Of a DNA stretch of 64,000 bases, positions 28,131 to 42,857 are shown one piece after another. This DNA comes from Escherichia phage FV3. The DNA lies in the sequence record NC_019517.1. One strand, written 5' to 3'. Within the stretch, counting starts at the first letter, position 1; each line of letters starts with the position of its first letter. The notes beneath the pieces are model-generated. The model ran no database searches and was not told the DNA's origin. It saw nothing but the letters and a program-made list of their open reading frames with translations. The translations under genes were made by a program, and so were the position numbers.

Positions 28131-28664
28131 ATGACTTGTGCTAGAAAACCTGATGAACAACGTAACGCTTACGACGAGTATGTGACACCGGAGTGGTGTG
28201 CAGAAGGGCTGTATGACCTTATTCCGTTCCCAGAAGACTGGACCTACTTAGAGCCTTGCAGGAATAGCGCTTCAGGTGTGTTCTACTCCCGTATGCCGTT
28301 AGGATCTGCATGGGGAGAAATTCAAGAAGGTGTTGACTATCTGAATACAGAATACAACCATGTTGACTGTATTATCACCAACCCGCCGTACAGCCTGGCT
28401 CGTGAGTTTGTGGACAAGGCGTTGAAAGATGCCGACGTAGTTATTATGCTTTTGCGTCTTAATTTTCTGGAAAGCAAGACCAGATTTGAATGGTGGCTTG
28501 ATAATGCACCTACCACTGTGATCACAATATCTAAGCGTCCGTCATTCCAATCCAATGGTAGAACGGATGGGCAGGCATATGCCTATTTTGTATGGGACAA
28601 GAAAAACCGTCTAGGCTTGCCGCCATTTATGTGGTTGGCACCACCAGAGGCAGACTTGAAATGA
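28131..28664 (+). CDS. small N6-adenine DNA methyltransferase
   Basis: motif IV DCIITNPPY. Confidence 0.7.
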   Translation: MTCARKPDEQRNAYDEYVTPEWCAEGLYDLIPFPEDWTYLEPCRNSASGVFYSRMPLGSAWGEIQEGVDYLNTEYNHVDCIITNPPYSLAREFVDKALKDADVVIMLLRLNFLESKTRFEWWLDNAPTTVITISKRPSFQSNGRTDGQAYAYFVWDKKNRLGLPPFMWLAPPEADLK

Positions 28665-28945: not shown

Positions 28946-28982
28946 TGGTGTATTTTGTTTTCAACAAGAGGGGGTGTCATCT

Positions 28983-29222
28983 ATGTACAAGTCATTTTCA
29001 ATCTACTCAAGACAGGCAAAACACTACACGGAGATTCTGATCACTCAGAAAAAGTCTGTAGAAGGTGAGTGGGAATATCATCATAAAATGTTGCGTCCAG
29101 ACTGGGTTTTTGATAGACTTATTGCTATGATTCCTCTTGGAGAAGTATACCCTCTGACAGGTCATAGGGATGCTTGGGATTTAATTGATTACATAGATTC
29201 ATTTAAGGAGCCTGGTGTATGA
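28983..29222 (+). CDS. hypothetical protein (79 aa)
   Basis: track ORF 28974..29222, ATG start preferred. Confidence 0.4.
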   Translation: MYKSFSIYSRQAKHYTEILITQKKSVEGEWEYHHKMLRPDWVFDRLIAMIPLGEVYPLTGHRDAWDLIDYIDSFKEPGV

Positions 29223-29617
29223 AGATTGAGATCACTAAAGAAGGTAAGAAAGTGTCTGGCGATTATGCAACAGTAATTCGGGATGTAATGTTTGAAGTAA
29301 CCCAGATTGGTACGTCTAAGGTTGGTCAAACGGTAAGTGTGCAAGGTAATATTGCCACAGGTGAAAAGATAATCATTGTGATCAAAGGACAAGACCCTGT
29401 GGAAGGAACAGTGGGCCGAGGAGGCTACCTGTGCATTTCTGAAGAACCGCGTATGCTGGTTGCTGATGACTCCACAGGTAAAAAGCGGGTATGTAACACG
29501 GACGAGGTGATGATTATCTATCCAGTCAACCCAGATGATCCGGCAACATGGATTGTGGGAAATGAAATCTTCTCTTTAGAAGAGTTATCCTTCCCAGCTC
29601 CGCGCTCTGTTCAGTAA
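29219..29617 (+). CDS. hypothetical protein (132 aa), N-terminus MKIEIT
   Basis: track ORF. Confidence 0.45.
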   Translation: MKIEITKEGKKVSGDYATVIRDVMFEVTQIGTSKVGQTVSVQGNIATGEKIIIVIKGQDPVEGTVGRGGYLCISEEPRMLVADDSTGKKRVCNTDEVMIIYPVNPDDPATWIVGNEIFSLEELSFPAPRSVQ

Positions 29618-29656
29618 TAATTTATCTTACCAGGGACGGTAGAAGTAGGAGGTAGC

Positions 29657-29890
29657 ATGAAAGTTAAATTTCTTACAGATTTAGGGTACCCTTCCTTGGT
29701 TGACTGCGTTGGTAAAATTGTGGAAGCAAAACGACTATCTGCAAACGATAATGTTGTCATGGTTAAGGGAAAAGATTTACTATCTGCAGGTGCAGAGTCT
29801 GGCAGGATCTCTCCTGACTATACGTATTACCTGTCTTTAAGTAATCTACCAGAACGAGGCGGCAAAGGCCTTGAAGTTGTGGAGGAGTGA
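29657..29890 (+). CDS. small acidic protein, paralog family A
   Basis: MKVKFL...KGKDLLSAGA...LEVVEE; SD GGAGG. Confidence 0.5.
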   Translation: MKVKFLTDLGYPSLVDCVGKIVEAKRLSANDNVVMVKGKDLLSAGAESGRISPDYTYYLSLSNLPERGGKGLEVVEE

Positions 29891-30414
29891 CAGGTATGCT
29901 GCTAGTTGATTGGAAAGATTTTTATGGCGATAAAGACCCGAAAGCCTTTATATATAAACCTTGGAGATACTCAGAGAGTCAAATTGCTGCAATAAACCTT
30001 ACAGCAAAGCGCCGAAAAATTATCGAAAGTAAATACAGGTACGCTCAGCTAGTGGCTGGTGTTTCTCCACAGGTAGAGAGTTTTGTGCTTAAACTGTACG
30101 AAAAGTTTATGAGTTACGATCTGTCATTCGTGAAGGTGGGTGAGGATTTATCCCCTGGTAACAACGTAACACGTTGGAAAGTTTCATGCGACAAAAAACT
30201 TCCGGTAAGTATTGAGGTGTGTCGATACTGGGGGTATCATGAGTGTGGCTTTTATGACTACCATGATGTAGAAATAAAGCCACGCAATCATCTAAGCGAC
30301 CCAGAAAAAGATTACTTGAAGCATGTGATTCTTTCCATGTTTGGAGGGTATATCACAGAGAAAAATAGCGAAGACAGAATATCCTTTCTTAACAGTTTGA
30401 ACCGGGAGATGTAG
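29887..30414 (+). CDS. hypothetical protein (175 aa)
   Basis: track ORF. Confidence 0.45.
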   Translation: MTGMLLVDWKDFYGDKDPKAFIYKPWRYSESQIAAINLTAKRRKIIESKYRYAQLVAGVSPQVESFVLKLYEKFMSYDLSFVKVGEDLSPGNNVTRWKVSCDKKLPVSIEVCRYWGYHECGFYDYHDVEIKPRNHLSDPEKDYLKHVILSMFGGYITEKNSEDRISFLNSLNREM

Positions 30415-30415
30415 T

Positions 30416-30652
30416 ATGACTATAGACACTGTGCTGGTTTGGTATTGCGCATTGACCTTTCTGACAATGGTTGTTTTAGCAACTCTTTGCATCATATCTT
30501 GTAGAAAAATTAAGTTTGACGACTTTATAACTATAATCACTGCCGCACCTTTTTGGCCTGTTGTTCTCTTCATTGCGGTTATGTGCTTGGTGGATCACTG
30601 TAAAACCGTCAGGAAAATGAAGGAGGCAGATAAGAATGGTAACAGTGACTGA
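30416..30652 (+). CDS. small membrane protein (78 aa)
   Basis: two hydrophobic helices. Confidence 0.45.
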   Translation: MTIDTVLVWYCALTFLTMVVLATLCIISCRKIKFDDFITIITAAPFWPVVLFIAVMCLVDHCKTVRKMKEADKNGNSD

Positions 30653-30854
30653 AACTGTTTATACTGTTCTTAGGGAGATTGCATTCTATACAGACCTTAG
30701 TTCAGTATCTTCATGGGAAAAGAGTGTGTATTTAAAATGGTGCGTGAAATTAGAGGGGACCTTCTAATGTTTCAAGCCATGTTTATTGAAATGCTCTCCG
30801 GAGTATTACTGCTGGTAGCCATTTTGGGTGGTGCGGCGCTAATGTATAATTATC

Positions 30855-31058
30855 TTGAAAAAGGGGACAGTAATGACAAAAAATAAATCCTTAGAACAGG
30901 CTGAAAACCTTCTCCACGAGCTGGTAAAGGAGTGGAAAGTTGAATACTCAGATTTTAATGCAAGAGAGGGGGAAGATTATTGGCCTACGGAGCGCTCAGA
31001 GGGAGAGTGGTATCAAGATTTCATAGAATGGTTATATCAGACGTGCGATGAGGGGTGA
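30855..31058 (+). CDS. hypothetical protein (67 aa)
   Basis: track ORF. Confidence 0.4.
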   Translation: MKKGTVMTKNKSLEQAENLLHELVKEWKVEYSDFNAREGEDYWPTERSEGEWYQDFIEWLYQTCDEG

Positions 31059-31516
31059 CGATGTTTGTTAAATATGTAAAAACGTGCCTCAACAACCTTG
31101 GTAGAGAGCATTGGTACACCTTGCTTGAAAAAGGAGAAATTTTAACAAAATCTGGAAAGATAACTCTGATACCTTTGGATGATAAAGACCCGTCACTACT
31201 TGTCATAGATGATTACGTTACAGGTGTGTCGTACGAGGTCTCTGTGGAGAGGTTAATACGCAGATCTGGAGGGCCTTATGACCGAAGAGAGTATGTTTTC
31301 GATTCTGTTACAGAGAAGGAGGATCCGTCTCTAATGTTTAGGATGGTAATCAGGGATATGAAATCATCTATAAATAGGATTGTAAAGGACATTAAGGAGC
31401 CTTTTAGGGTAAAAGTTAAGAAGTTTTTTGATTCTAAGATTAACATACTCGCCGTTGTGCTAGGCGTAATTCAACTTCTGTTAATTTTGCACTATCTTGA
31501 ACTGTTGTTCAAGTAG
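31055..31516 (+). CDS. hypothetical protein with C-terminal TM helix (153 aa)
   Basis: track ORF. Confidence 0.45.
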   Translation: MTMFVKYVKTCLNNLGREHWYTLLEKGEILTKSGKITLIPLDDKDPSLLVIDDYVTGVSYEVSVERLIRRSGGPYDRREYVFDSVTEKEDPSLMFRMVIRDMKSSINRIVKDIKEPFRVKVKKFFDSKINILAVVLGVIQLLLILHYLELLFK

Positions 31517-31576
31517 TGTGCAACAAGGCACAAAGGATGTGCCATGATTAAATAAACTAAGAAAGAGGTAGAGAGA

Positions 31577-31924
31577 ATGCCAAAGATTAAGTCGATATTA
31601 ATGTGGGCAGCTGTTGTGGCTTTTGTAGGATACTGGACTTGGGAAACTGAATTAAAAGATATCGGGTATACCAGTCTTGAGAGCAAGGCATGCATTGGCA
31701 TAACCGATGCATTCAGGCAAAATGCTATGGATCACGAATGTGTCGATGCAGATATAGATGAGAAACTGTCTAAGGACAAGGATTTTTACCATGGTCATGC
31801 CTTGCTTGATAGTGGTGACACTGTAGAATTCTGGTCGTGGTTCCGTGAAGATGGAACAATAAAGACAGCAGTAAAGATTTCCAACAAAGAGTTAATGCTG
31901 TTGCAGCAGAAGGAGGTGCAATGA
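31577..31924 (+). CDS. hypothetical membrane-anchored protein (115 aa)
   Basis: N-terminal hydrophobic segment. Confidence 0.45.
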   Translation: MPKIKSILMWAAVVAFVGYWTWETELKDIGYTSLESKACIGITDAFRQNAMDHECVDADIDEKLSKDKDFYHGHALLDSGDTVEFWSWFREDGTIKTAVKISNKELMLLQQKEVQ

Positions 31925-32208
31925 TCTGGATATCCTACACTGATGGCACCATGCTGTATACTGCAGGTACTAGGTATGAAGTTCAGGAGGACGATAAAAA
32001 ATTTATCGTAAAAACATTTGACAAGGACGAAAACCTTTTGTTAGAATTGACTTACAAGGTTGGGGAGGTATCTAGCATCCAATTGGATTGCGGTCATAAA
32101 GATAACCCACTCAAGAAACCTGGGGTAGGTAAAGCTTCAGAAGAACGCCTGTCTCGTATTGCAGAAAGCGTTTCTGCACAAAAATCTAAGAAGGGGACTA
32201 GAAAATGA
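31921..32208 (+). CDS. hypothetical protein (95 aa)
   Basis: track ORF. Confidence 0.4.
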   Translation: MIWISYTDGTMLYTAGTRYEVQEDDKKFIVKTFDKDENLLLELTYKVGEVSSIQLDCGHKDNPLKKPGVGKASEERLSRIAESVSAQKSKKGTRK

Positions 32209-32399
32209 AAAACTTACGTTTTAACACTTATTACTACAACACTTTGAATGATTTGTATTATATTATTCGAAGTAAAAGTCCTGAAACAGTCCTATTCTGC
32301 CGCGAACCTTTCAAAGGGGAGGAAGTAGAGTCTGAGATGAATGTTAGCCATATTACCTCTTTGTTGCTCTCAGGTGCAATGGAAGAAGCAATATTCTAA
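32205..32399 (+). CDS. hypothetical protein (64 aa)
   Basis: track ORF. Confidence 0.35.
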   Translation: MKNLRFNTYYYNTLNDLYYIIRSKSPETVLFCREPFKGEEVESEMNVSHITSLLLSGAMEEAIF

Positions 32400-32417
32400 A
32401 CCAGGCGGGAGGGTTTT

Positions 32418-32603
32418 ATGAAGCACTATTGCCTGTTTGGTAGGATGGGTGTAGAGTGTGATTGGGTTTTCTTAAAACTTGTCAGCATCCGAGAGTCAAT
32501 CCCAGAGGAAGAGCAAGAAAGTGAGCTGATGTCATGGATCAGCTATTACGGCAACACTTTCCGGTATGTCAAAATGGAAGGGCTGCCAAGCGAGGATGAT
32601 TGA
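32418..32603 (+). CDS. hypothetical protein (61 aa)
   Basis: track ORF. Confidence 0.35.
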   Translation: MKHYCLFGRMGVECDWVFLKLVSIRESIPEEEQESELMSWISYYGNTFRYVKMEGLPSEDD

Positions 32604-32698
32604 TTATGATTGCATCAATATTAACGTTTATGGGTGGCGTGGCGGTCGGATTCATTATTTGCCTGTTTATAGTGATTATGTCTATGCGAGGCTGACTT

Positions 32699-32983
32699 AT
32701 GAAACTGTTCGAGTGGTTTAAAAAGTTTAAATACCGGGCCGTTGCTGTATCGAAATGGACTGTCCGCTGGGTGGACAATGATGGAACACAAATTCCAGGT
32801 GATCAGGATACCGGATACTGGGTTATGATGGAGAACGGATTTGGGAAAAGGAAGTTTAAATGTGTTGGTGCTCCTACCCTTTTAAATGTTAGAAGTGTGC
32901 CAGGGTACAGCACTCTGGTTGTTTGGGAGCTATCCGGTGTTCCTCCTGCCAATGTGCAATACTTGCCAAATTCAGAAAAATAA
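32699..32983 (+). CDS. hypothetical protein (94 aa)
   Basis: track ORF. Confidence 0.4.
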   Translation: MKLFEWFKKFKYRAVAVSKWTVRWVDNDGTQIPGDQDTGYWVMMENGFGKRKFKCVGAPTLLNVRSVPGYSTLVVWELSGVPPANVQYLPNSEK

Positions 32984-32995
32984 AAGGAGAAAATA

Positions 32996-33280
32996 ATGAG
33001 CAATGGTATTAGCAACAATGCTGCAGAGTTTAAAGTGATCTGTAAAGGCACTTATTGGATAGTGAAACAGAAGGTGTACCTATTCGGTTTCATACCGTTT
33101 TGGCAGAGATTTTGCTGGGGAGCTAACGAGCTTAAGAGATACGCCACCAAGGCTATGGCACTTATTGGTATAGCTGAATACATTGCTGCCAGGGACAGAG
33201 AGGGGAAAACTTGTTACTACACTGCTGACGAGATTCGTAACAGTGTTTACGTTCCACAACCGCCCGATGGAGACCGCTGA
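32996..33280 (+). CDS. hypothetical protein (94 aa)
   Basis: track ORF. Confidence 0.4.
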   Translation: MSNGISNNAAEFKVICKGTYWIVKQKVYLFGFIPFWQRFCWGANELKRYATKAMALIGIAEYIAARDREGKTCYYTADEIRNSVYVPQPPDGDR

Positions 33281-33504
33281 TGAAAGTGAAAGTTTTAGAT
33301 TCAAACTTCTATATTGGTCAAGAGCCTTTAGTTGGAAAAGTGTTTACCGCTATCCCTAACGAAGATTATCCTGACCTTTTAAAAATAAAAGGGGAAGATC
33401 TTATTGCCGCTGGCGCGTCTCAGGAATGCTTTGACAGTCAGTGGGCCTACAACTTTGCCCTAGGGGAGGATGTGGAGATAGTGGAGGACGATTATGAAGG
33501 TTAA
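33280..33504 (+). CDS. small acidic protein, paralog family A
   Basis: MKVKVLDSN...GEDLIAAGA...VEIVEDDYEG; net charge about -11 in 74 aa. Confidence 0.5.
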   Translation: MKVKVLDSNFYIGQEPLVGKVFTAIPNEDYPDLLKIKGEDLIAAGASQECFDSQWAYNFALGEDVEIVEDDYEG

Positions 33505-33748
33505 AATTCTTGACTCTAACGTCTACTTGGGACAATCATTCCTGAAGGGAAAGGTAGTACCTGCTGTATACTTCGAAGGGTTGCCGTGGGATGATCCTGT
33601 GCGGCAAAATCACAGCTATGTAGGCCACAATGTGGTGTTCATTTTGGGATCAGACCTGATCGCGGCTGGTGCTCCGGAATATTATTTCGGAGAGGACTCG
33701 TATTATGCCTTTGGGGTAGGGTCAGATGCAGATATTTTAGAGCCGTGA
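33494..33748 (+). CDS. small acidic protein, paralog family A
   Basis: MKVKILDSN...GSDLIAAGA; adjacent tandem paralog. Confidence 0.5.
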   Translation: MKVKILDSNVYLGQSFLKGKVVPAVYFEGLPWDDPVRQNHSYVGHNVVFILGSDLIAAGAPEYYFGEDSYYAFGVGSDADILEP

Positions 33749-34159
33749 TTGGGGACTGTTGTGAAAAATAAACTGTTCAAAGTTACAATGAAAATTCGCG
33801 GAGCTTGGAGCGTAAAGCAAGGGCGTATCCCGGAATTTGAGAAAGACTTCTACGTAGTCTCCACCTCTGAAGAGGCTGCATGCTGGCAGGCTGGCTATGC
33901 CTATGCAAGAACTTGGTACGAAGGGTACCAAACTGGGGGCTATGACGGAGAAATTGTCAGTAAGGGTGTGGAAGAAATTAATGTGTTGACAAGTGAAAAA
34001 GTTTTTGTTATAGTGCATCCTGATTCCAGAGTGAAGCATTACTGGAATGCCAGAACAAAAACCTGGACACCATTTGCAGATTCTGCTACACCACTTTTAA
34101 ACCAGAAAGCTCTTGACTCTGCCCCGAGCTACGGGGTTGTTGAAGAAAAAATAAGCTGA
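33749..34159 (+). CDS. hypothetical protein, paralog family B
   Basis: shares VHPDSRVKHYWNARTKTWTP-like block with ORF 35963. Confidence 0.45.
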   Translation: MGTVVKNKLFKVTMKIRGAWSVKQGRIPEFEKDFYVVSTSEEAACWQAGYAYARTWYEGYQTGGYDGEIVSKGVEEINVLTSEKVFVIVHPDSRVKHYWNARTKTWTPFADSATPLLNQKALDSAPSYGVVEEKIS

Positions 34160-34176
34160 AATAGTGGGGTACTTAC

Positions 34177-34467
34177 ATGATGGATTTAGTTTTGGATACT
34201 GATAACACCGAATCGTTTAAAAAAGATGGTGTAATAAGCATGGACCAATCCTGCCATGCCAAGATTGACTCAAAATGGACCTACAAGTTTGACGGTGAGA
34301 TCTTCGCAAATGATGAGAAGGTTGTGGATGCTGTAGCCATTTTAAACGCTTTAGGGTATGACCCTGTGAACTCATTGATCAAGGATCCTGTTGAGTTTGC
34401 AGAGTATGTTCGTAAAATGGCAGATCTTGCAGTAGATATTTTAAAAACTATCGACGACAAGCTGTAA
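34177..34467 (+). CDS. hypothetical protein (96 aa)
   Basis: track ORF. Confidence 0.4.
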   Translation: MMDLVLDTDNTESFKKDGVISMDQSCHAKIDSKWTYKFDGEIFANDEKVVDAVAILNALGYDPVNSLIKDPVEFAEYVRKMADLAVDILKTIDDKL

Positions 34468-34473
34468 AAACTG

Positions 34474-34502
34474 TTGACACAACATTTGATCTTTAGTATC
34501 AT
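34474..34502 (+). promoter_or_regulatory. sigma70-like promoter TTGACA-N17-TATCAT
   Basis: consensus hexamers upstream of the HPF homolog. Confidence 0.55.
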
Positions 34503-34549
34503 TATTTCCAAAGAGGGTTTGGTTCCCTCTTCTTTAAAAGGAGCACGTT

Positions 34550-34867
34550 ATGCAGATTGAAATTACTGGCAACGTAGAGATCACTGAAGGTATGGTGTCT
34601 TTCATTTCCCACAAAATGTCCAAACTGGAGCGTTTGCACCCATCTGCCAACTATGCACGTGTGAGTGTAAAAGTTGAAAATGATCACCAGGAAGTTATGG
34701 CTTTTATTTTTGACAATTCTGGGAAAGAAGTTATCGCCAAAGCTAAAGGTAGCGATGCTTACGAGGCAACTGACCGTATGGTGGATGTTGCAGCACGCCA
34801 GTTGGCTAAATGCGGTGGAAAGAAAGGTAAGGGAAAAGGTAAAGTAAAGATTGACTTTTGGGATTGA
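34550..34867 (+). CDS. hpf: ribosome hibernation promoting factor / RaiA-family homolog
   Basis: MQIEITGNVEIT...KLE...VKVE...AKAKGSDAYEATDRMVDVAARQLAK aligns block-by-block with E. coli HPF; Lys/Gly-rich tail. Confidence 0.8.
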   Translation: MQIEITGNVEITEGMVSFISHKMSKLERLHPSANYARVSVKVENDHQEVMAFIFDNSGKEVIAKAKGSDAYEATDRMVDVAARQLAKCGGKKGKGKGKVKIDFWD

Positions 34868-35004
34868 GGTGCTACAATGAGTATGATTAAGAAATTAGTC
34901 CCAAATGTAGAGATTGCATGCTTTGAAATTATGTTTGCAATCGCAGTTGTAGTTAATGTGTTAGGTTACGACTATTAATATCAAATAATTGAGGAGACCT
35001 CTAA

Positions 35005-35274
35005 ATGAAAATTAAATTATTCAAAACTGAGCTGGCAGACAAAAACTGCGGACTGGTTGAAGGCATGATCGTTGAAGCACAACCAGTGGACTACATGAAG
35101 GTGGTTCGTGATGCTCTGGGTGAAGGTTTTGATCTGATGGAGCCAGCTCTGCGAGAAGATGTCATCGAGATGGCTAAAAAGCACACACCTGAAGGCTTGG
35201 TAGTGTTTGTTGCTCCAGGTAACGGAGAAGAGTTGATTGTAACTCCGGATGTGTATGAGGTTGTAGAGGAGTAA
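35005..35274 (+). CDS. small acidic protein, paralog family A-like
   Basis: MKIKLF...YEVVEE. Confidence 0.45.
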   Translation: MKIKLFKTELADKNCGLVEGMIVEAQPVDYMKVVRDALGEGFDLMEPALREDVIEMAKKHTPEGLVVFVAPGNGEELIVTPDVYEVVEE

Positions 35275-35362
35275 TCTTGGGTTAGCCATACTTCCTCGAC
35301 AAGAAAGGTTTGTAATTATTTGTGGGAAAGGAATCCCCATCTCTTACCAGAGGTGATACTGT

Positions 35363-35626
35363 ATGATTGTTTATTTTAAAACTTCAGGTGGATACCCTGA
35401 TTCTCAAAGCTTGATTGGAAAAACGTGCACAGCATACTCGCCTCTTGATGATGAGGTAAGTGATACCCTACGAAATATGTATCGGATTGATCCACAAGAA
35501 GCTTTTGATCAGAACCTTGTATTTGTCAAGGGCTCAGACATGAAGTCTTTGGGGGCATTTCCTGAAGCAGATGATAATGCTGTTTATTCGTTTATGACCC
35601 CTTTTGAAGCTATGGTTGTTGGGTGA
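35363..35626 (+). CDS. small acidic protein, paralog family A-like
   Basis: VFVKGSDMKSLGA block. Confidence 0.45.
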   Translation: MIVYFKTSGGYPDSQSLIGKTCTAYSPLDDEVSDTLRNMYRIDPQEAFDQNLVFVKGSDMKSLGAFPEADDNAVYSFMTPFEAMVVG

Positions 35627-35963
35627 GAATATGAAAGTACGCTTTATTGGTGAAACAATTCCTGTGCATCTCCGGTCGCCTGAGGATTCTGCAGATCTTG
35701 CATCTCAAAAGGCCAGAGGGTATGATAAGAAAGTAATCTCAACCGATGTAGAGCTTGAGGCTACCAGTCTGCCTGACCCTGCTGCATTCTTTAATCATTA
35801 TGGATACTATTTCAGCAATCTGATGAATATCGGTGAGCTTGTGTTTATTAGTGGTGGAGAAATAGTTAGCAAGCTTGGCGGCGATCCGGATGTCTTTCAT
35901 GAAACCTGCCCTTTTGCATTTGTGGTAGGTTCAGATGTGGAAGTTATTGAGGAGGTGCGGTAA
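35604..35963 (+). CDS. small acidic protein, paralog family A-like
   Basis: MKVRFIG...VEVIEEVR. Confidence 0.45.
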   Translation: MKLWLLGENMKVRFIGETIPVHLRSPEDSADLASQKARGYDKKVISTDVELEATSLPDPAAFFNHYGYYFSNLMNIGELVFISGGEIVSKLGGDPDVFHETCPFAFVVGSDVEVIEEVR

Positions 35964-36358
35964 TGGTAAGTCTATACCGTGTTGAGTATAGCTCAGATAC
36001 TGTATACAACGTAAGAAGCAAAGATCGTAGCGACAGAGTGCAAGAAATGTATGTTCTTGCCGACAGTCCGTTATCTGCAGCGTTTAAGGCAGGAGCTCTT
36101 GCATCTCGTTGGAAATTCGAGGGTGGATCTTTCTATGAAGAAACTCTTGAAGATTCTGTTGTTATTTCTTCTGTAGAGGTTTCAACTGACTACGAAGGGA
36201 AAAAGTTCGTAATGCGGCACCCACACAGCAACATTGCGTACTACTGGGATGTTCTGAACAACGAGTGGACTCCAGATCTTCAGAAGGCCACTGTTCTGAC
36301 TCCGTTCTTGGCAGATAAGTTCCCACCAGAAGGTAATTTATCTGCACTGTTTCAGTAA
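35963..36358 (+). CDS. hypothetical protein, paralog family B
   Basis: VMRHPHSNIAYYWDVLNNEWTP block shared with ORF 33749. Confidence 0.45.
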   Translation: MVSLYRVEYSSDTVYNVRSKDRSDRVQEMYVLADSPLSAAFKAGALASRWKFEGGSFYEETLEDSVVISSVEVSTDYEGKKFVMRHPHSNIAYYWDVLNNEWTPDLQKATVLTPFLADKFPPEGNLSALFQ

Positions 36359-36376
36359 TTTTATTCTACACAGGTG

Positions 36377-36405
36377 TTGACAACACCAACCCTGTGTGCA
36401 ATAAT
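36377..36405 (+). promoter_or_regulatory. sigma70-like promoter TTGACA-N17-AATAAT
   Basis: consensus hexamers. Confidence 0.5.
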
Positions 36406-36434
36406 ACCTTCATCTTAACAAGACAGGAGACTGA

Positions 36435-36695
36435 TTGATGAAGATTAAATTGAAAAACCTTGAAATGGCAGAGGTTCAGGAAGGTGTTGATTTCCGCTCT
36501 AAAGATGGCGACATCTTAGAGGCGAATATCCCGACCTATAAGTTGATTAAAGGTTTTGGCAACGTTCCTGAAGAGGATATTACAGACATTCTTATGATGT
36601 TGATCCTTGACGGGACCGTGTTTGTAGGTGAAGGTGAGAACGCTATTGCAATCCCAGGCCATTTTTATGAAGTAGTTGACGAAGAGGTGCTGTAA
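36435..36695 (+). CDS. small acidic protein, paralog family A-like
   Basis: MMKIKLKN...FYEVVDEEVL. Confidence 0.45.
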   Translation: MMKIKLKNLEMAEVQEGVDFRSKDGDILEANIPTYKLIKGFGNVPEEDITDILMMLILDGTVFVGEGENAIAIPGHFYEVVDEEVL

Positions 36696-37046
36696 ATGAA
36701 AGTAGAGATCACAGGTTTTGATATGAATGTGGTTCCGGAAGATATTTTAGCTAAACTTCCGGAAGGTTTTGGTAACGGTGTTGTGGTGGATGCTGTCCCT
36801 CCTACCAAAGACATTCTGCTGCAGTATGGTGTAGCAGAGGAAGATGTCGATAAAGTTCTTACAATGATGGCAATAGACCGTGTTGTCGTTGTTAAAGGTC
36901 TTGAAGGTTTTGATGACGATCCTCTGATTATTCGTGGTGATGACTATCGCATCATCGACAACGAAGGCCAAGAGTTCTACGAACCTTCTGCTGAAGATGT
37001 TCTTAACTTACTACTGGAAGCAGGCACCGAAGAGGAGGAAGAATAA
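36696..37046 (+). CDS. small acidic protein, paralog family A-like
   Basis: MKVEITG...poly-Glu C-terminus. Confidence 0.45.
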   Translation: MKVEITGFDMNVVPEDILAKLPEGFGNGVVVDAVPPTKDILLQYGVAEEDVDKVLTMMAIDRVVVVKGLEGFDDDPLIIRGDDYRIIDNEGQEFYEPSAEDVLNLLLEAGTEEEEE

Positions 37047-37375
37047 TGAAAATTGATCCGTTACTAAAGGCTCGTGCAGAAAAAGCATACACTATCAAGC
37101 TGACCTCTCTGGTCCCTACTTGTCATCCGGATGTAGGTTGGCCTGAAGGCCTGGTAGAGGGGACTGTAACAGCTGCATACCTTCCTAACATCAAATACCT
37201 CATGGAGATCTTGGAGATGGATGAGGAAACGGCAGAACAGTTCCAGTTAGACATGAAGCAAAGTGGGACTCTGGTTATTCACGGGTGGTATAATACTAAA
37301 GATGCAGAAGATCCCCTGGTAACTTCTAATCTGGCATATGAAATCTTAGGACCTTTGAACTTGGGGGAAGACTAA
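37046..37375 (+). CDS. small acidic protein (109 aa)
   Basis: track ORF; ATGA overlaps. Confidence 0.4.
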   Translation: MKIDPLLKARAEKAYTIKLTSLVPTCHPDVGWPEGLVEGTVTAAYLPNIKYLMEILEMDEETAEQFQLDMKQSGTLVIHGWYNTKDAEDPLVTSNLAYEILGPLNLGED

Positions 37376-37662
37376 TGAAAGGTTTGGTTAAGATCAAGAT
37401 TAAAGACACCAAGGGAGAACTCAGCCATTTTGGAATTAACGATGGTGACGAGCTGATCGCCCACCTGCCTACCAAGGAAGTTGTAAGCAAAGCTGTTGCC
37501 GGAGAAGAAGATGCAATGCAGGCTGCAGGTGTGGATGAAAACTATGTAGCAATGTGTATGTGCCGAGATCAGGTTGTTCTGTATAAAGCGTATCGACCAA
37601 ATGGAGCACCTGAGTGGCTTGTTTTCCGACCCGAAGGGTATGAAATTTTAGAGACGCTATGA
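37375..37662 (+). CDS. small acidic protein (95 aa)
   Basis: track ORF. Confidence 0.4.
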   Translation: MKGLVKIKIKDTKGELSHFGINDGDELIAHLPTKEVVSKAVAGEEDAMQAAGVDENYVAMCMCRDQVVLYKAYRPNGAPEWLVFRPEGYEILETL

Positions 37663-37751
37663 TAAATCTTGCCAAGGTTGCAACGGCACTGTTAATTATT
37701 TGCTGGATAGTGACCTTGGCACTATGTCTTGTATTTCATTAAGGGGGCTGT

Positions 37752-38015
37752 ATGAACATCCTGATGTGGGTTGTGGCAGTGGCGTTTGTTGCGTGCCTCT
37801 CTTGTTGGGTTGCTGTGAGGATTTCTATAGCCACTCTTCGGAAATTAGGGTTCTCAGAGTGGGATATTAATATCCTCTCTTTTCGCAATGAGACGATCTC
37901 AGCTGCCTTACTGTGCAAGAAGTTCAAGTGGAAACCTTGGGAGGTCATGAGCTATCTAAGAACAGGGGATATTCCTGAGAGATTTAAAAAAGTTCTTGAC
38001 GGCGAAGATAAATGA
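37752..38015 (+). CDS. small membrane protein (87 aa)
   Basis: N-terminal TM helix. Confidence 0.4.
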   Translation: MNILMWVVAVAFVACLSCWVAVRISIATLRKLGFSEWDINILSFRNETISAALLCKKFKWKPWEVMSYLRTGDIPERFKKVLDGEDK

Positions 38016-38170
38016 TAGTATAGTTACTAACAAGAGGTGAGGAATGACTGATTTTACTGAAGCTTTAATGATGGCCTTATCCGTTTTAGCGCTATCTGTG
38101 TGTTTTGGGGCGTTATTCACATCTCTGGTTAAAGTTTTACATACCATATTATCACCCAAGGAGCACAGTA

Positions 38171-38422
38171 ATGACGAAGATTGACTTAAATGCTGGAGAC
38201 CATGTTGTTGTCAAATGCATCGGAGATTATCTTGGATTCACAATCGGCAATACTTACGAGGCGGTAGTGGCGAAGGTTTACCATGATAAAGTCCTCAGCC
38301 TTGTATTTGACTGTGATGATGACGGAGATGACCGCTACGTCTGTGAGGTGCTGGCTCGTGACGATAGTGAAGACCAGAAATTCCTGGTTACCGAACTGAA
38401 CGGTATTTTTGTAGAACGTTAA
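38171..38422 (+). CDS. hypothetical acidic protein (83 aa)
   Basis: internal ATG of track ORF 38105..38422. Confidence 0.4.
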   Translation: MTKIDLNAGDHVVVKCIGDYLGFTIGNTYEAVVAKVYHDKVLSLVFDCDDDGDDRYVCEVLARDDSEDQKFLVTELNGIFVER

Positions 38423-38450
38423 TTTAAAACAATATAAGGAGACTCTTACT

Positions 38451-38756
38451 ATGGCTAAATCTAAAGTTGAACTGTTCACCTCTCTTCCTTCTGACACTGC
38501 AGAGCGTGATCGCCTCCGTAAAACAATTGAAGAGCTGGTAGAACTTCAGCTTCAGATTAAAGATCTGAAAGACGCTATCAAGGATATTATTCTTGTCGAG
38601 AAACAGGATCACCTGTATTCTCCTAAGTTTATCAAGTCCTTGGTGGCTACCGAATTCGATATCCGCTACGAGGCTGAAAAACGTCGAGCTAAAATCGAAG
38701 AAGAGGTTGAGCACATGTCTGAAGCAGACATTCTGTTCAAACGCTCTGCAGAATAA
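38451..38756 (+). CDS. hypothetical coiled-coil protein (101 aa)
   Basis: SD AAGGAGA; terminator follows. Confidence 0.45.
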   Translation: MAKSKVELFTSLPSDTAERDRLRKTIEELVELQLQIKDLKDAIKDIILVEKQDHLYSPKFIKSLVATEFDIRYEAEKRRAKIEEEVEHMSEADILFKRSAE

Positions 38757-38761
38757 CGACA

Positions 38762-38788
38762 AAGAGGGGTCTTGGCCCCTCTTTTTAC
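38762..38788 (+). terminator. rho-independent terminator
   Basis: GAGGGGTCTTGGCCCCTC hairpin followed by TTTTTACT. Confidence 0.65.
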
Positions 38789-38809
38789 TATCTATGAAGG
38801 AGATCAGAA

Positions 38810-39136
38810 ATGCTAATGCCGATTACTGTAAAAGAGCTAAATGAACGTGATGCAGGGGGCCTATGGCCTGCGCGGAAAATACGCTGCGTTTATATGAAAG
38901 AGAATCTTGAGCACCTTGATCAACAGATTGCGGTGGGGGATATTTTCGAAGTTTTCTATTCTAATCGCCGCAACTGGGAAACCATTCAACCTTCAGGTTT
39001 TGTTCTTGCCAAACTTGATACCGGAGAAGTGATTATCCCTGGGCTGGATATTGTCTTCGAAATTATCCAGGAGTGGGATCCTGATAAGATTAAATATGAA
39101 GAGTTATTCGGTGAAGGTATTATCAAGCCTGTGTGA
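38810..39136 (+). CDS. hypothetical protein (108 aa)
   Basis: track ORF. Confidence 0.4.
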   Translation: MLMPITVKELNERDAGGLWPARKIRCVYMKENLEHLDQQIAVGDIFEVFYSNRRNWETIQPSGFVLAKLDTGEVIIPGLDIVFEIIQEWDPDKIKYEELFGEGIIKPV

Positions 39137-39444
39137 GGTGGATTATGTCTACAACGACAGCTAAATACTCCTATATGCCAGCAACCTCCGCAGAAATAGA
39201 CTTCAGTTTCGATGTGTTTCCATTGTTTGAGATAGTCCTGGCATACCCAACAACTATATCTACTCCTGAATCACTTGTGCCTATTAAGTTGCAGAACGCT
39301 ATGCATTCCATGCACTACAACAATAAATGCAGGCACAGATGGTGTCAGGACGAGGAAAAAGATCTAGATAGTTTGAAAGATTTTGACAATCACCTTTTGA
39401 CCCCTTTCAGCTACTCTAACCTGGACAAGCCCTCATGGGTATAG
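39133..39444 (+). CDS. hypothetical protein (103 aa)
   Basis: track ORF. Confidence 0.4.
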   Translation: MRWIMSTTTAKYSYMPATSAEIDFSFDVFPLFEIVLAYPTTISTPESLVPIKLQNAMHSMHYNNKCRHRWCQDEEKDLDSLKDFDNHLLTPFSYSNLDKPSWV

Positions 39445-39468
39445 CAAAATATCAAATTTAAGGCACCT

Positions 39469-39497
39469 AGGACGCTCTGTGGCGTCCTTTTCTTTAT
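39469..39497 (+). terminator. rho-independent terminator
   Basis: AGGACGC-TCTGT-GGCGTCC followed by TTTTCTTT. Confidence 0.65.
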
Positions 39498-39657
39498 CTG
39501 GTGCACGATTGCATACCTTGGGTAGTTAATCTCATTACAGAGCGTTTAATAGCGGCCTGTAAACAGATCTCTATTTCGAGCGTAGCGAGAACGCACGTCC
39601 GTTTTGACCCAAATCACCATACGCTCGGATTTTAACCAAACCCTCGCGGCGTTTCTG

Positions 39658-39686
39658 TTGACACATTACCGCTCCTGTGATAGTAT
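39658..39686 (+). promoter_or_regulatory. sigma70-like promoter TTGACA-N17-TAGTAT
   Basis: consensus hexamers. Confidence 0.5.
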
Positions 39687-39706
39687 CCTCACATAGTTTG
39701 TAGAAT

Positions 39707-39808
39707 ATGAAATACGCAATGAAAACATTATCTGAGGTTTTAGTGGTGATCCTGATGATCATTACGTCCATAGCAGTTGTTGCCGGAATACTCACGGGTG
39801 GAACATGA
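39707..39808 (+). CDS. hydrophobic micro-protein (33 aa)
   Basis: MKYAMKTLSEVLVVILMIITSIAVVAGILTGGT; ATGA overlap with next ORF. Confidence 0.35.
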   Translation: MKYAMKTLSEVLVVILMIITSIAVVAGILTGGT

Positions 39809-39993
39809 CCAACACACATGCACCTAAAGAGACATCTGAAGAAGCGACTATAGAGAAAAACTTCAATTCTGAGGATTCTTTATCTCCGTCTCAGGTAGAT
39901 CCTGAGGCTGATGACCTGACGTGGGAAGACATCGTAGACATCTGGTTCTCTATCATGCCTGAGCACGAAGAGTTCAGAGGTGGGAGACTATGA
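39805..39993 (+). CDS. hypothetical acidic protein (62 aa)
   Basis: track ORF. Confidence 0.4.
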   Translation: MTNTHAPKETSEEATIEKNFNSEDSLSPSQVDPEADDLTWEDIVDIWFSIMPEHEEFRGGRL

Positions 39994-40112
39994 AGCACCG
40001 AGCCCACATAAGTTTATCATGCTAAAGCATGGCCTGAAGAGGCAAACGTGCATAATTCCAGTGCATTGGAACGTATAACCCTGTTCACACTCTCATTTCC
40101 AGAGGAGATTTT

Positions 40113-40328
40113 ATGAAGATAGAAATATTTGGTGGAGCTGACAACACTCGTGGCCTGATTTACCTTGAATTCGATGAATCATACCTGCCAGAGGTGTTAA
40201 ATATAGACTCTGTTGCTGAGGCTTTGGGAGTAAACCCTAAAGAACTCCACTCTTGTGCTGAGATCGATGGTTGGGAAGAGACCATGAACATTGATTTCAG
40301 TGAAGTAGAGGATGAACCGCTGGACTGA
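40113..40328 (+). CDS. small acidic protein, paralog family A-like
   Basis: MKIEIFGG...acidic C-terminus. Confidence 0.45.
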   Translation: MKIEIFGGADNTRGLIYLEFDESYLPEVLNIDSVAEALGVNPKELHSCAEIDGWEETMNIDFSEVEDEPLD

Positions 40329-40508
40329 CACACAATTAGCTGCCCGGCTAAAGTGCTGGAAGCACCTATAACACATCTTTCAACTAAATTTCCTACCACC
40401 ACAATCACTTACCTCCCACACATGACTGTTTGCTTGTTTAGTGAGCAGTCATTCCTTGACATTCTTGCCTATCCTGATAAAATTAAGTTCTTCTCTTTTC
40501 TTTTACCG

Positions 40509-40535
40509 AGTAATTCGGGTTTTCTGTTCTCTTCG
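40509..40535 (+). terminator. possible terminator closing the plus-strand block
   Basis: hairpin CCGAGTAATTCGG followed by T-rich tract (approximate). Confidence 0.35.
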
Positions 40536-42559
40536 GTTTGAAGGGGTATGGAGATACACCTGAGTGAACAGGGTGAACAACCGAACCTTTAGCTATGGCA
40601 TTAGCATGGCGAAGCGGACGGGTGACGAAAGAGGGGCCGGAGGACACCAGTCACTGCCATATGGTATATGGGTGATAACCTGAAGAGTCTGAATAAGTGT
40701 TTAAGTACCAGTCAGAGGAAAAGGTGAATGGTAGCCGAAGGGGGAGGGGGGTTTCTTGTATCTTTAATTTGTATACTTTATATACACTTGTAAACCAATT
40801 CAATTAGAATATGGATACCACACAAAGTGGATAGAGGCAAATATTCCCTATTAAACTTGAATTATTTATAGAAAATACCACAACACTGCTTAAGTCTTTG
40901 ATTTTACACACAAATATTACAAATATCCTGCCTCTATATTTAACATACCTGTAACATATTCCATACTCTCCCTGATTGATCAATTCCCCAACTACATCCC
41001 CATATTTTCCCTTCCTGTACTACCCCTGCCCCGCCGGGAGTCCCGTCATATCTGGCTTTCCAGCAAATATCACACCCACAAATATCATTGCCTGAAGAGG
41101 GTTTCATCCCATAATACCTGCCTTACCCGAAGAGCGCTTCATACACCACGTAAATTTTTTAATTGACCTGCAATTTTCCTGCAGACCCACCCCCTGCCCA
41201 GCCGGAGAGGTTGGCTTTTCCCACACAGGCCTGAAGAGTCAGCCAGAAATATCTGAAGGGGGTCCAGTTCTACCACGATTTTGACCTGACCTACAGGAGC
41301 GCTGCCAGGCGGACGAAATGGGAATACTTCTCATTCTTATAACAATTCTCAAATATCGGGGCAGTGAGGCAAATTAATAGGCGAGGCCGTTCACACAGTG
41401 GCACAACATTTGCAAGCTATTTTGCGGGGGTGAATGAGAATACCTATCATTGTGAGAATAGTTATCATTACGGGCAATTTAACATAATACCCATTATGCG
41501 CACCACTGGCGATACATACAGGGATTGATAACATGGGTTACTGTTTACGCATATAACAATTGTATTTCTTATTATTTGTGGGGGATATAGTTAGCAACCA
41601 ATAGATTAGTTATTAACCTGCGGACTTCTGACCGTCTAGACGTCCAAACGCCCACACCACAAGGATTATACATACACTCCTGCATGTAAACAGGGCCGCA
41701 AAAATGCTACCATACCAGTTTGTAAATTTTCCATGCAGCACTTGACAAAGAGGAGAAAAACTTGTCTGACACACTGGACACCTTATACACCTTATACACT
41801 TTCGATACAATAACGATTGTTATTATTTCATGTTTCACTGTTCACGTATAGATTGTTCCTGCATAGACTGTTTACGCCTGGATAGTTTACACCTTGACAG
41901 TTTACGCAGATATGATAAGCCATGACATTCGTTTGCATAGTTGCCTTATTGTTACAGGTAAAACAATTACATTGTTAACTATTTCTTATCTTTCTCTTAG
42001 TCATCTAATGATTCCAGTCAGTATAGTTATGTACAGTAAACATTAGACGACTAAATATTTCTCTGATTATAGTAACCTATCGTGACAATTTCTAACTGTT
42101 TACGAAAAATGTTGACACCTGGGCAGGTTTATGTTATGCAGTTTGTACGAATAATTATTTTGTACAGGTATTGACTATTCCGTTATTCTGTGGTTGGAAT
42201 AAATACTTTGCAGGCTATAGAATGGTGATCGTACGTGGATTCTGAGATCTGTCGGCTATAGTTACACCCGATTTTTCACGTAGGACACGCTTTTTGGTTT
42301 GTGTAAGTGTATGACTTATAAGGGTTTTTAATTGTTGACAGTATACTGAAGATGTGCATCAGGTTAAATTTTGTGCAATAGCTGCATTACGTGCAATTTT
42401 GGGAGAGAAAACGGGTAAAAATAGCACCGCTACCACACAATGAAAGGTTATGCAATAGCTATTTTACATGTATATTTGTACAGTGTGCGGGATTGATGGC
42501 TCGTCAATTATTCCACTTGTCAGGTAGGGCCGTTTATGGTAGGAAAAGAGCAGACAAAA
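40536..42559. other. gene-free repeat-rich region between convergent blocks; candidate origin, regulatory or ncRNA locus
   Basis: no credible ORF over 2 kb; motif CTGTTTACG in at least 5 copies (41540-42100), CCTGAAGAG x3, GAGAAYRNTTATCATT x2. Confidence 0.5.
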
Positions 42560-42590
42560 AGAAAGGGGCCTAAGCCCCCTTGATAATGTT
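42560..42590 (-). terminator. rho-independent terminator closing the minus-strand block
   Basis: on minus strand AAGGGGGCTTAGGCCCCTT hairpin followed by TCTTTTTGTC. Confidence 0.6.
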
Positions 42591-42593
42591 GTA

Positions 42594-42857
42594 TTATTTG
42601 TTGCTCATCCAGTTTTCCCAAGCTGCCTGATAATCTGCCTCACTGCGGCGGATCTCTTCTTGTTCTTCAAGCCGGATCTCTTCTTCCAGGTACCCAAGGA
42701 TATCGGATTTTTTGGTCTGGCGTAACATCCAATCATCTTTTTTACGAGTAAAGATCTTGTACGCTTTCTCGCAAACCTCTTTTTTACTACCTTTTTGGAC
42801 TTCAAGAACTTTGTAGGCCATGTACTGAACTAGTTTGAGCTGATCAAGACGTTTCAT
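42594..42857 (-). CDS. hypothetical protein (87 aa)
   Basis: track ORF. Confidence 0.45.
   Translation of the reverse strand: MKRLDQLKLVQYMAYKVLEVQKGSKKEVCEKAYKIFTRKKDDWMLRQTKKSDILGYLEEEIRLEEQEEIRRSEADYQAAWENWMSNK

Follow-up and report, generated by a model that had tools for sequence, protein, structure and literature searches.

Paralogous families of small proteins in the small-gene region of an rV5-like coliphage

Results

Organisation of the small-gene region

The window, the whole 64,000-nucleotide stretch of DNA analysed here, belongs to a Vequintavirus (an rV5-like coliphage) and is 97.5% identical to phage HMD-6 and 90% identical to rV5. Its small-gene region (positions 28974-40328) contains about 36 co-oriented short ORFs, nearly all annotated as 'hypothetical' and most with Shine-Dalgarno sequences, in keeping with the roughly 30 genes of the initial annotation. 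The same span carries 39 annotated CDS in the rV5 record (ORF125-163) and about 37 in the HMD-6 record. The region lies directly downstream of, and in the same orientation as, genes for ribonucleotide reductase, ThyX, ligase, exonuclease, ClpP and methyltransferase; in rV5, genes 82-163 form one unit together with the replication genes (PMC3606486). The array genes are densely packed, with stop/start overlaps of 1 nt, as between 35631..35963 and 35963..36358. Strong sigma-70-like promoters (11 of 12 positions matching) are located at 34474-34502 and at 36377.

Within the array are three ancient paralog families, A, B and C (Table 1; genes are named by their start position), which account for 11-12 of the about 36 genes. 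The layout is A ... [A-A-C] - x - HPF - B - [A-A-C] - B-B-B-B, so that an A-A-C cassette occurs twice (cassette 1: 33280, 33494, 33749; cassette 2: 35363, 35631, 35963). The first of the two promoters stands ahead of the HPF gene, whose homologues in related phages are annotated as RaiA or sigma-54 modulation factor.

Table 1. Paralog family members and other features of the small-gene region
Feature	Coordinates	Strand	Length (aa)	Net charge	Remarks
Family A	29657..29890	+	77	-1	Isolated copy upstream of main array; phrog_5009 E 8.5e-36
Family A	33280..33504	+	74	-11	Opens cassette 1; AF2-modelled
Family A	33494..33748	+	84		Insertion in a loop; 11-nt overlap with 33280; phrog_5009 E 3.6e-32
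Family A	35363..35626	+	87		Long beta2-beta3 insertion; opens cassette 2; phrog_13920, weak phrog_5009 match E 1.4e-4
Family A	35631..35963	+	110		Longest insertion; second in cassette 2; blastp to 33494 E 1.4e-4
Family B	35005..35274	+	89	-10	Leave-one-out HMM E 2.7e-5; hhalign 99.6% to B alignment
Family B	36438..36695	+	85	-11	Leads run of four tightly coupled B genes; AF2-modelled
Family B	36696..37046	+	116	-22	pI 4.05; poly-Glu tail; leave-one-out HMM E 5.8e-6
Probable (marginal) family B	37046..37375	+	109	-10	Leave-one-out HMM E 4.5e-4, top non-self match
Family B	37375..37662	+	95	-5	Leave-one-out HMM E 7.3e-6; 28% profile link to 35005
Family C	33749..34159	+	about 132-136		Start codon uncertain; third in cassette 1; phrog_7379 E 2.4e-73
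Family C	35963..36358	+	131		Third in cassette 2; phrog_7379 E 4.2e-66
HPF/RaiA-type ribosome hibernation factor homologue	34550..34867	+			PF02482 E 1.8e-12, above curated cut-off; embedded in array, outside the families
Candidate, membership unsupported	29219..29617	+			hhalign 0.6% to A, 1.6% to B; separate PHROG 5748
Candidate, membership unsupported	40113..40328	+	71	-16	hhalign 2.4% to A, 9.3% to B, confined to 5-7 columns

Family membership

Families were called from all-against-all blastp and phmmer searches, leave-one-out HMMs, PHROG assignments and pairwise profiles; the array holds true paralogs. The initial annotation had placed at least 11 genes in a single family, defined by a shared N-terminus, an internal GxDL-type block and an acidic C-terminus; the sequence evidence separates them into two families, A and B. 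Of this description, the N-terminus stands: across the entire window there are 230 ORFs with 50 aa or more, and the nine that show the pattern MK[IV][KER][IVLF] all lie inside the region. The block does not, as G(S/E)DL(I/L)AAGA is restricted to family A, three genes having a clean version and 35363 and 35631 a degenerate one.

Family A consists of five genes (29657, 33280, 33494, 35363 and 35631), all carrying a GxDLIxAGA-type block. They match a family A profile of 98 sequences at E values of 7e-12 to 2e-29 (hhalign, 97-99.8%), and in a search of the window's six frames with this profile all other ORFs stayed at E 0.5 or above. Full-length membership of phrog_5009 is seen for 29657, 33280 and 33494 (E about 1e-32 to 1e-38), the last two being 41% identical (blastp E 1.9e-15). 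The isolated copy 29657 is recovered by a leave-one-out HMM (E 3.7e-8) and matches the extended family A profile at 99.5%. For the genes of cassette 2, hhalign gives 98.3% (35363, with profile links of 92% to both 33494 and 29657) and 97.1% (35631, with 95.5% to the 33494 group).

Family B, which lacks the GxDLIxAGA block, comprises 35005, 36438, 36696, 37375 and, marginally, 37046. In leave-one-out searches the omitted gene was the top match every time (E 6e-6 to 6e-3). Pairwise profile links are modest, at 25-44% (for example, 25% from 35005 to 36438), and are missing for 37046 (all at most 1%), which is why we grade this gene as marginal; its position, length and C-terminal YEIL motif are common to family B. 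No profile link joins A and B: hhalign probabilities are 1.5-16.6% overall and at most 2.6% pairwise, the alignment-to-alignment values (10.6-16.6%) being restricted to the N-terminal 30 columns, and family B genes score at most 19% against the family A profile. Against the family A HMM, the family B genes, 29219 and 40113 gave E values of 0.23-5, which does not amount to membership. Membership of A or B is supported for neither 29219 nor 40113, their likeness being limited to the first 5-7 residues; 40113 has a phmmer match to 37046 (E 0.027) and matches phrog_12108.

The second paralog pair of the initial annotation, 33749 and 35963, is our family C (blastp E 4.3e-11; both phrog_7379). Family B is found in Vequintavirus only (36696 in 117 records), and tblastn matches of the family C gene 33749 are likewise confined to this genus. 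No match was obtained for the ten A and B proteins in Pfam, NCBIfam, PADLOC or PDB sequence searches; only PHROGs of unknown function were matched, in support of the view that no family could be named.

Acidity and predicted fold

The median net charge per 100 aa is -8 for family A and -11 for family B, compared with -3.9 for the other 26 small genes and -1.1 for large ORFs. The strong charge noted at the outset was confirmed for 33280 (-11 in 74 aa), and 36696 (-22 in 116 aa) and 40113 (-16 in 71 aa) are also highly charged. Taking a pI of about 4 and a D+E content above 20% as benchmark, 33280, 35005, 36438 and 36696 contain 21-26% D+E, and 29657, 33494, 35363, 35631, 37046 and 37375 contain 13-17%.

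AF2 models of 33280 (family A; pLDDT 92.3) and 36438 (family B; pLDDT 85.8) are five-stranded barrels that superpose on SH3/KOW domains at the level of fold class only. The A and B proteins are predicted to be small acidic SH3-like beta-barrels, sharing their fold class with SH3, Spt5/NusG KOW and PsaE domains. Family B and the longer family A members have an insertion between beta-strands 2 and 3. No specific solved structural relative of the barrel was found in the PDB. SH3-like barrels are very common, and the shared fold therefore proves neither homology of A and B nor a binding function. That they are Sm/KOW-like RNA- or DNA-binding proteins we consider very improbable: the proteins are strongly acidic (pI 4.0-5.4, net charge -5 to -22) and show no evident basic patch in their sequences, Pfam nucleic-acid-binding domains were not found, and the window contains no Rfam RNA as a potential partner.

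Selection and natural variation

The family had been described as rapidly diversifying, and this is not what we observe. All members are under purifying selection, with dN/dS values relative to rV5 of 0.00-0.18 (dS, 0.08-0.63), for example 0.15 for 29657, 0.02 for 35005 and 0.17 for 36696; 35631 is 100% identical in amino acid sequence to its rV5 orthologue. Of 119 Vequintavirus records, 114 contain the 6.2-kb array core at 88-98% nucleotide identity, with gene content and order kept and only sporadic deletions or fusions. It could be argued that ORFs this short, without named homologues, are chance ORFs or non-functional leftovers of duplication: copies can disappear, and indels affect the rV5 orthologue of 37375, whose annotation splits it into ORFs 153 and 154. 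This explanation is refuted by the selection values and the confident AF2 folds; the Shine-Dalgarno sequences, the retention in more than 110 genomes and the relatives across phage families (see below) also speak against it.

Part of the array is dispensable in the laboratory. The BASEL phage Bas59 lacks 4 kb corresponding to window positions 30102-34073, including 33280 and 33494 of family A and 33749 of family C, yet it plates normally and its immunity profile is unchanged. In L007 and L008 the two tandem A genes are merged into one chimera, 33494 and 33280 having recombined in these natural isolates at the block encoding DLIAAGA.

Family A beyond the genus

Family A is part of a wider, unnamed and uncharacterised phage domain family. 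Among 1.84 billion representatives, 87 clusters match at E <= 1e-3, with the pattern MKVKLLxxGGYxGM ... GxELIxxGA ... YxF ... ExEVVEE and no Pfam entry. Over family A as a whole, acidity is moderate (median net charge -5, range +6 to -13). The domain is seen in T4-like, T1-like, SU10-like and lambdoid phages, either as adjacent genes, as in Krischvirus (L009) and an SU10-like contig (L006), or as fused repeats with two or three copies per polypeptide (P0096, P0097, P0122, P0146, P0148 and P0162). The structural matches in BFVD (TM 0.7-0.87) are proteins, all uncharacterised, from RB49, Merlin, CS01, Sf20 and pSf-1. No informative domain fusion was found, the sole named partner being DUF3310, itself uncharacterised. 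The family A gene of lambdoid prophages lies between Q and the holin gene, a late-expressed position that fits poorly with a strictly early host-takeover role.

This distribution bears on whether the proteins serve the phage's own machinery (replication, nucleotide metabolism or translation control) as adaptors or chaperones, for example together with the HPF homologue. The genes upstream of the array, the HPF/RaiA gene in its middle, the strong purifying selection and the almost universal retention in the genus all accord with such a role. We nevertheless think it rather unlikely, because family A occurs in unrelated lambdoid, T1-like, SU10-like and T4-like phages without that machinery, and because the array is partly dispensable.

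Possible relation to type I restriction

The initial annotation regarded the proteins as DNA-mimic-like, for which we find no positive support, given the compact SH3-like barrel and the moderate acidity of family A. The broader proposition is that at least one acidic paralog is an anti-defence protein, specifically a type I restriction inhibitor acting as a DNA mimic or as an analogue of Ocr (T7 gp0.3) or ArdA, the resemblance being that of small and strongly acidic phage products. The charge of several members is in the range of Ocr, and 36696 has the length of Ocr and comes near its charge. Ocr is an elongated helical dimer, in contrast to the compact barrel predicted for A and B. No Ocr, ArdA or KlcA homology was found for any of the ten proteins in Pfam, NCBIfam or PDB sequence searches, nor was any solved inhibitor, Ocr and ArdA included, specifically similar in structure, and PADLOC-DB defence-protein profiles gave no match at E <= 0.05.

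Published phenotypes bear on this proposition. With 14, 9 and 15 EcoKI sites, respectively, the Vequintaviruses Bas57, Bas58 and Bas59 plate on EcoKI with an efficiency (EOP) of 0.06-0.83, and on EcoCFT_I with an EOP of 0.2-1; in the same EcoKI assay lambda-vir (5 sites) has an EOP of 2.4e-5 and Bas01 (3 sites) of about 1e-4 (PMC8594841). Types II and III restrict Vequintaviruses strongly (PMC8594841), as expected of a type-I-specific inhibitor, and the annotation of HMD-6 positions 1-80,000 includes no known anti-restriction gene. However, the BASEL authors put the weakness of type I restriction down to the rarity of sites (PMC8594841), and orphan N6-adenine methyltransferases in the genome could also account for the tolerance. 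Bas59, without 33280, 33494 and 33749, has the same EOP on EcoKI and EcoCFT_I as Bas58, so loss of two A members leaves the EOP unaltered. Family A is absent from the 72,556 plasmids searched, on which anti-restriction genes are commonly shared, and acidity is uneven (net -1 for 29657, and +6 to -13 across family A). We therefore consider an anti-defence function unlikely; if there is one, family B or other very acidic genes are the most plausible candidates.

Discussion

We tentatively favour the reading that the paralogs encode accessory, non-essential, host-directed protein-binding modules that act together in early or middle infection. Their accessory nature is suggested by the normal plating of Bas59 and by the A-A chimera in L007 and L008, and early or middle timing by the sigma-70-like promoters and the shared unit with replication genes in rV5 (PMC3606486). 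The modules would bind host proteins, and would do so jointly rather than singly, since elsewhere the same domain is repeated in neighbouring genes and, two or three times over, within one polypeptide. The members may form hetero-oligomers, an idea based on Rosetta-stone logic and gene adjacency, or act as multivalent binders. The contact surface would likely comprise the conserved GxELIxxGA helix together with the acidic C-terminal strand and tail.

Dozens of co-oriented genes of fewer than 150 codons also make up the small-ORF regions of T4, T5's pre-early genes and the host-takeover module of SPO1. As here, those arrays have host-type promoters, and their products are mostly acidic, dispensable and without assigned function. 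The present array differs in that 11-12 of its genes come from three internally duplicated families and in that one domain is common to T4-like, T1-like, podo- and lambdoid phages. The toxicity of the T5 pre-early genes is summarised in PMC13250531. In PHROGs, every A, B or C gene outside phrog_5009 matches its own orthologous entry, the Vequintavirus-only set being 13920, 13661, 11868, 12359, 12155, 12457, 12794 and 7379; paralogs are split into separate families with no function or fold given. Absent from PHROGs are the relationships that unite the five A genes, those that unite the B genes, and the arrangement in A-A-C cassettes.

Phages related to rV5 are among the commonest coliphage isolates and serve in cocktails for biocontrol and therapy, with about a third of their genes unnamed. 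About 12 'hypothetical proteins' can now be assigned to one of three paralog families, and for two of these families the fold is predicted with confidence. Were they ordinary redundant accessory factors, the value of this would be limited to better annotation. The public BASEL collection already offers deletion and fusion variants that arose naturally (Bas59 versus Bas58). For the published phenotype, near-immunity of Vequintaviruses to type I restriction-modification together with hypersensitivity to types II and III, the array and neighbouring acidic genes are candidate causes. It is conceivable, if improbable, that family A, and perhaps B, represents a new counter-defence class of SH3-like fold, acting as hetero-oligomeric or multivalent decoys, with at least one array member behind the tolerance to EcoKI. 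In that case, the same domain would mark anti-defence loci in T4-like, T1-like, SU10-like and lambdoid phages.

Genomic setting of the array

Judged by nucleotide identity, the FV3 window is that of a Vequintavirus, an rV5-like E. coli myophage, because the region 28974-40328 shares 97.5% identity with Escherichia phage HMD-6 and about 90% with phage rV5, and matches 121 phage records, 113 of which cover at least 80% of it. The rV5 counterpart (ORF125-163) is annotated almost entirely as 'hypothetical protein', the sole named exception being ORF144, 'sigma 54 modulation factor'; the HMD-6 record is annotated similarly. Upstream of the array, the same strand carries genes for an RNA ligase, a Sir2-like protein, DNA ligase, exonucleases, ThyX, ribonucleotide reductases, ClpP-like proteases and a methyltransferase. 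The rV5 genome paper took genes 82-163 as a single transcription unit and makes no mention of paralogs (PMC3606486). We found no Vequintavirus transcriptome or genome-wide functional screen in the literature; the CRISPRi-ART paper targeted EdH4 only at the major capsid protein and rII. A literature search on the sequence motifs of these proteins returned irrelevant matches only, and Rfam and tRNA scans of the whole window returned none.

The initial annotation had described co-oriented short genes with acidic products, and this description holds. We delimited 36 ORFs in the region, most of them preceded by a Shine-Dalgarno sequence. The reported net charges are correct (-11 for the 74-residue product of 33280, -22 for the 116 residues of 36696, -16 for the 71 residues of 40113), and the N-terminal motif MK[IV][KER][IVLF] occurs in nine of the 230 ORFs of the window, all nine inside the region. 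A phage-encoded ribosome hibernation factor (HPF) gene is embedded in the array (see table); it is kept in all relatives with a dN/dS of 0.02. Sigma-70-like promoters with 11 of 12 matches lie ahead of this gene (34474-34502) and likewise ahead of 36438, and both coincide with sites annotated in rV5. That the array proteins of families A and B (defined below) target the phage's own machinery, perhaps together with the embedded HPF, seems to us rather improbable.

Features of the window discussed in the text; members of families A to C are named by their start coordinates
Feature	Position	Strand	Remarks
Family A	29657, 33280, 33494, 35363, 35631		GxDLIxAGA-type block; pairwise profile probability 80-99%
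Family B	35005, 36438, 36696, 37375; 37046 marginal		Without GxDLIxAGA-type block; looser, 25-44% pairwise
Family C	33749, 35963		E 4e-11
HPF/RaiA-type ribosome hibernation factor	34550-34867	+	PF02482, E 1.8e-12; mid-array
Iteron-like repeats ACTGTTTACGC	41540, 41837, 41867, 41897		30-nt spacing
36-nt repeats	42338-42478		Within 40400-42600
AT-rich stretch	41.7-42.4 kb		GC 32-37%
RNA ligase	2025-2960		RNA-repair-like cluster; HMD-6 annotation
'Cyclic-phosphate processing receiver domain' gene	within 950-4800		RNA-repair-like cluster; HMD-6 annotation
Phosphoesterase	952-1506	-	RNA-repair-like cluster; HMD-6 annotation

Three paralog families

Families were called by all-vs-all blastp and phmmer, by searching family HMMs against all six-frame ORFs, by leave-one-out HMMs and by per-gene profile-profile comparisons; all approaches agree. 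They define three families among the array proteins, and we reject the earlier proposal that 11 or more of them form one family united by an internal block: the block is confined to family A, and the profiles of families A and B are unlinked. The probability of an A-B link was 1.5% with five-sequence alignments, 10.6% with ortholog-enriched profiles, 16.6% with a 98-sequence family A profile, and at most 2.6% for individual gene pairs; the residual signal was traced to the N-terminal 'MK(I/V)K ... G.V..A' segment. Gene 37046 was picked up by the leave-one-out HMM alone (E 4.5e-4) and is a marginal member of family B. Genes 29219 and 40113 are not supported as members, their resemblance to family A or B being limited to the first few residues. 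The second paralog pair of the initial annotation stands as family C.

Along the window, the array runs A(29657) ... [A A C](33280-34159) - 34177 - HPF(34550) - B(35005) - [A A C](35363-36358) - B B B B(36438-37662). The A-A-C cassette is seen twice, which suggests an ancient segmental duplication. In motif comparisons, the two A genes within a cassette are more closely related to each other than to any other, so tandem duplication or gene conversion would also be required after the cassette duplication.

As the initial annotation had stated, the proteins match no family that can be named. Pfam, NCBIfam and PADLOC scans returned nothing for any of ten members, and PDB sequence searches with the A profile, the B profile and a family C protein gave no meaningful match. 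PHROG matches carry no function: three family A genes match phrog_5009 (function not given), both family C genes phrog_7379, and every other gene its own Vequintavirus PHROG. Structure models, made for 33280 and 36438, show an SH3-like fold for families A and B. We regard it as very improbable that these proteins are nucleic-acid binders.

Selection and natural variants

Every family member has a dN/dS of 0.00-0.18 against rV5 (dS, 0.08-0.63), which marks them as real genes kept by purifying selection. Of 119 records, 114 have the 6.2-kb core (32000-38200), at 88-98% identity. These values contradict the proposal of a rapidly diversifying family; turnover in the array is sporadic. Selection and fold together rule out junk ORFs.

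In two Vequintavirus assemblies from metagenomes or read archives (L007 3001-3213 and L008 3001-3213; window equivalent 33280-33748), one 70-residue chimera replaces 33280 and 33494. The segment 33421-33650 is gone, with a 26-nt overlap exactly at the DLIAAGA-coding block, and the chimera arose by recombination between the two paralogs. A larger natural deletion of ~4 kb (window equivalent 30102-34073) is found in Bas59 (EduardKellenberger, MZ501061), a viable phage of the BASEL collection, and removes about 15 small genes, two of family A and one of family C among them. The ORF at the junction, annotated as 'putative glycosidase', actually joins the orthologs of 29887 and 33749. The rV5 ortholog of 37375-37662 (L001 9944-10214) shows two gaps when aligned with the window sequence and is recorded as two overlapping ORFs (ORF153/154); it is a pseudogene, or else the 2006 record contains a sequencing error. 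A 98-residue protein from a 657-bp ENA contig (P0090) is a variant of the 37046 protein with the N-terminal half swapped for an unrelated PF24132 segment; some Vequintaviruses may carry this alternative N-terminus, or the contig may be an assembly chimera.

The family A domain outside Vequintavirus

Searched with a family A profile, 1.84 billion representative proteins yielded 87 clusters (E <= 1e-3), mostly stand-alone proteins of 63-90 residues with the pattern MKVKLLxxGGYxGM ... GxELIxxGA ... YxF ... ExEVVEE. The diverse family A alignment offers no conserved run of 7-10 columns. In six clusters, one polypeptide combines two or three domain copies, and a few have C-terminal extensions without a name or, in one case, DUF3310; the only fusion partners of the distant homologues are DUF3310 and nameless β-rich or Cys-rich extensions. 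Relatives identified by tblastn and BFVD structure matches occur in Krischvirus (RB49-like T4 relatives), Tlsvirus (T1-like), a Proteus siphovirus, and Iodobacter and Vibrio phages, always next to small 'hypothetical' genes. In lambdoid E. coli prophages, a relative lies between the Q antiterminator and holin genes (35 of 5426 complete genomes). Tandem copies recur: an SU10-like contig has two side by side, and at the Krischvirus KFS-EC locus two strong copies adjoin each other, flanked by two weak ones. In a collection of 72,556 plasmids, the lone match is a Vequintavirus genome deposited as a plasmid; the domain is otherwise absent. Families B and C were not found beyond Vequintavirus, and in other genomes families A and C do not occur together.

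Restriction phenotypes

The BASEL paper describes Vequintavirinae as 'exceptionally susceptible' to R-M (PMC8594841). According to its raw data (S1 Data, S5 Table), the EOP on EcoRI is about 1e-4, and no plaques form on EcoRV, EcoCFT_II or Fun/Z. For Bas57, Bas58 and Bas59, the EOP is 0.06-0.83 on EcoKI and 0.2-1 on EcoCFT_I (PMC8594841). The authors explain this weak type I restriction by the rarity of sites. These phages have 14, 9 and 15 EcoKI sites, respectively; in the same assay, lambda-vir (5 sites) has an EOP of 2.4e-5 and Bas01 (3 sites) of about 1e-4 (PMC8594841). Because phages with fewer sites are restricted far harder, a factor beyond site rarity is suggested, and this looks like a so far unrecognised, type-I-specific tolerance. 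Within positions 1-80,000 of HMD-6, no known anti-restriction gene is annotated; orphan adenine methyltransferases are. The orphan N6-adenine methyltransferase genes of the window (28131-28664 and 13243-14079) may offer another explanation for the EcoKI tolerance.

The initial annotation proposed an anti-defence locus, which these data would narrow to type I anti-restriction. The profile of Bas59 equals that of Bas58 across all 11 tested systems; thus, 33280, 33494 and 33749 are dispensable for growth on K-12 and for every tested resistance. An effect of the deletion could be masked by the three A genes remaining in Bas59. On balance, we consider an anti-restriction role unlikely.

Other features of the window and of database records

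The segment 40400-42600 (about 2 kb) contains a single ORF of at least 60 residues (41613-41810, - strand), gives no Rfam or tRNA match, and coincides with a flip in gene orientation and a peak in cumulative GC skew. With its repeats and AT-rich stretch, the segment is a candidate for a replication origin or a regulatory region. The rV5 genome map (PMC3606486) marks a 'non-coding' box. The RNA-repair-like cluster at 950-4800, whose gene identities were taken from the correspondence with the HMD-6 annotation, lies next to genes for a Sir2-family protein and a nucleotide pyrophosphohydrolase; in the HMD-6 record, a polynucleotide kinase/3'-phosphatase gene neighbours the cluster. The cluster possibly provides counter-measures against anticodon nucleases or NAD-depleting defences. 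Eighteen GenBank 'Campylobacter phage' records (MG0656xx, host C. jejuni) and the 137.6-kb E. coli 'plasmid' CP057073 are in essence Vequintavirus genomes that share about 90% identity with the window, and are probably mislabelled or contaminant phages.

Discussion

Our preferred reading, to which we give somewhat less than an even chance, is that the family A and B proteins are accessory protein-binding modules produced from host-type promoters. They would act together on a host target, whether as hetero-oligomers or as multivalent binders, and would probably contact it through the GxELIxxGA helix and the acidic C-terminus. We infer this from the anatomy of the array, the fold, the selection on its genes, their partial dispensability, and the recurrence of tandem and fused copies.

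The genes themselves were already on record: more than 100 genomes list them as hypothetical proteins, and PHROGs has clustered them. New are the organisation of the paralogs, the SH3-like fold, the broader nameless domain family with its tandem and fused habit, the natural variants, and the connection to an unexplained tolerance of type I R-M. The FV3 array is akin to the accessory small-protein arrays of large virulent phages, and its significance would be higher if a member proved to be a new counter-defence fold.
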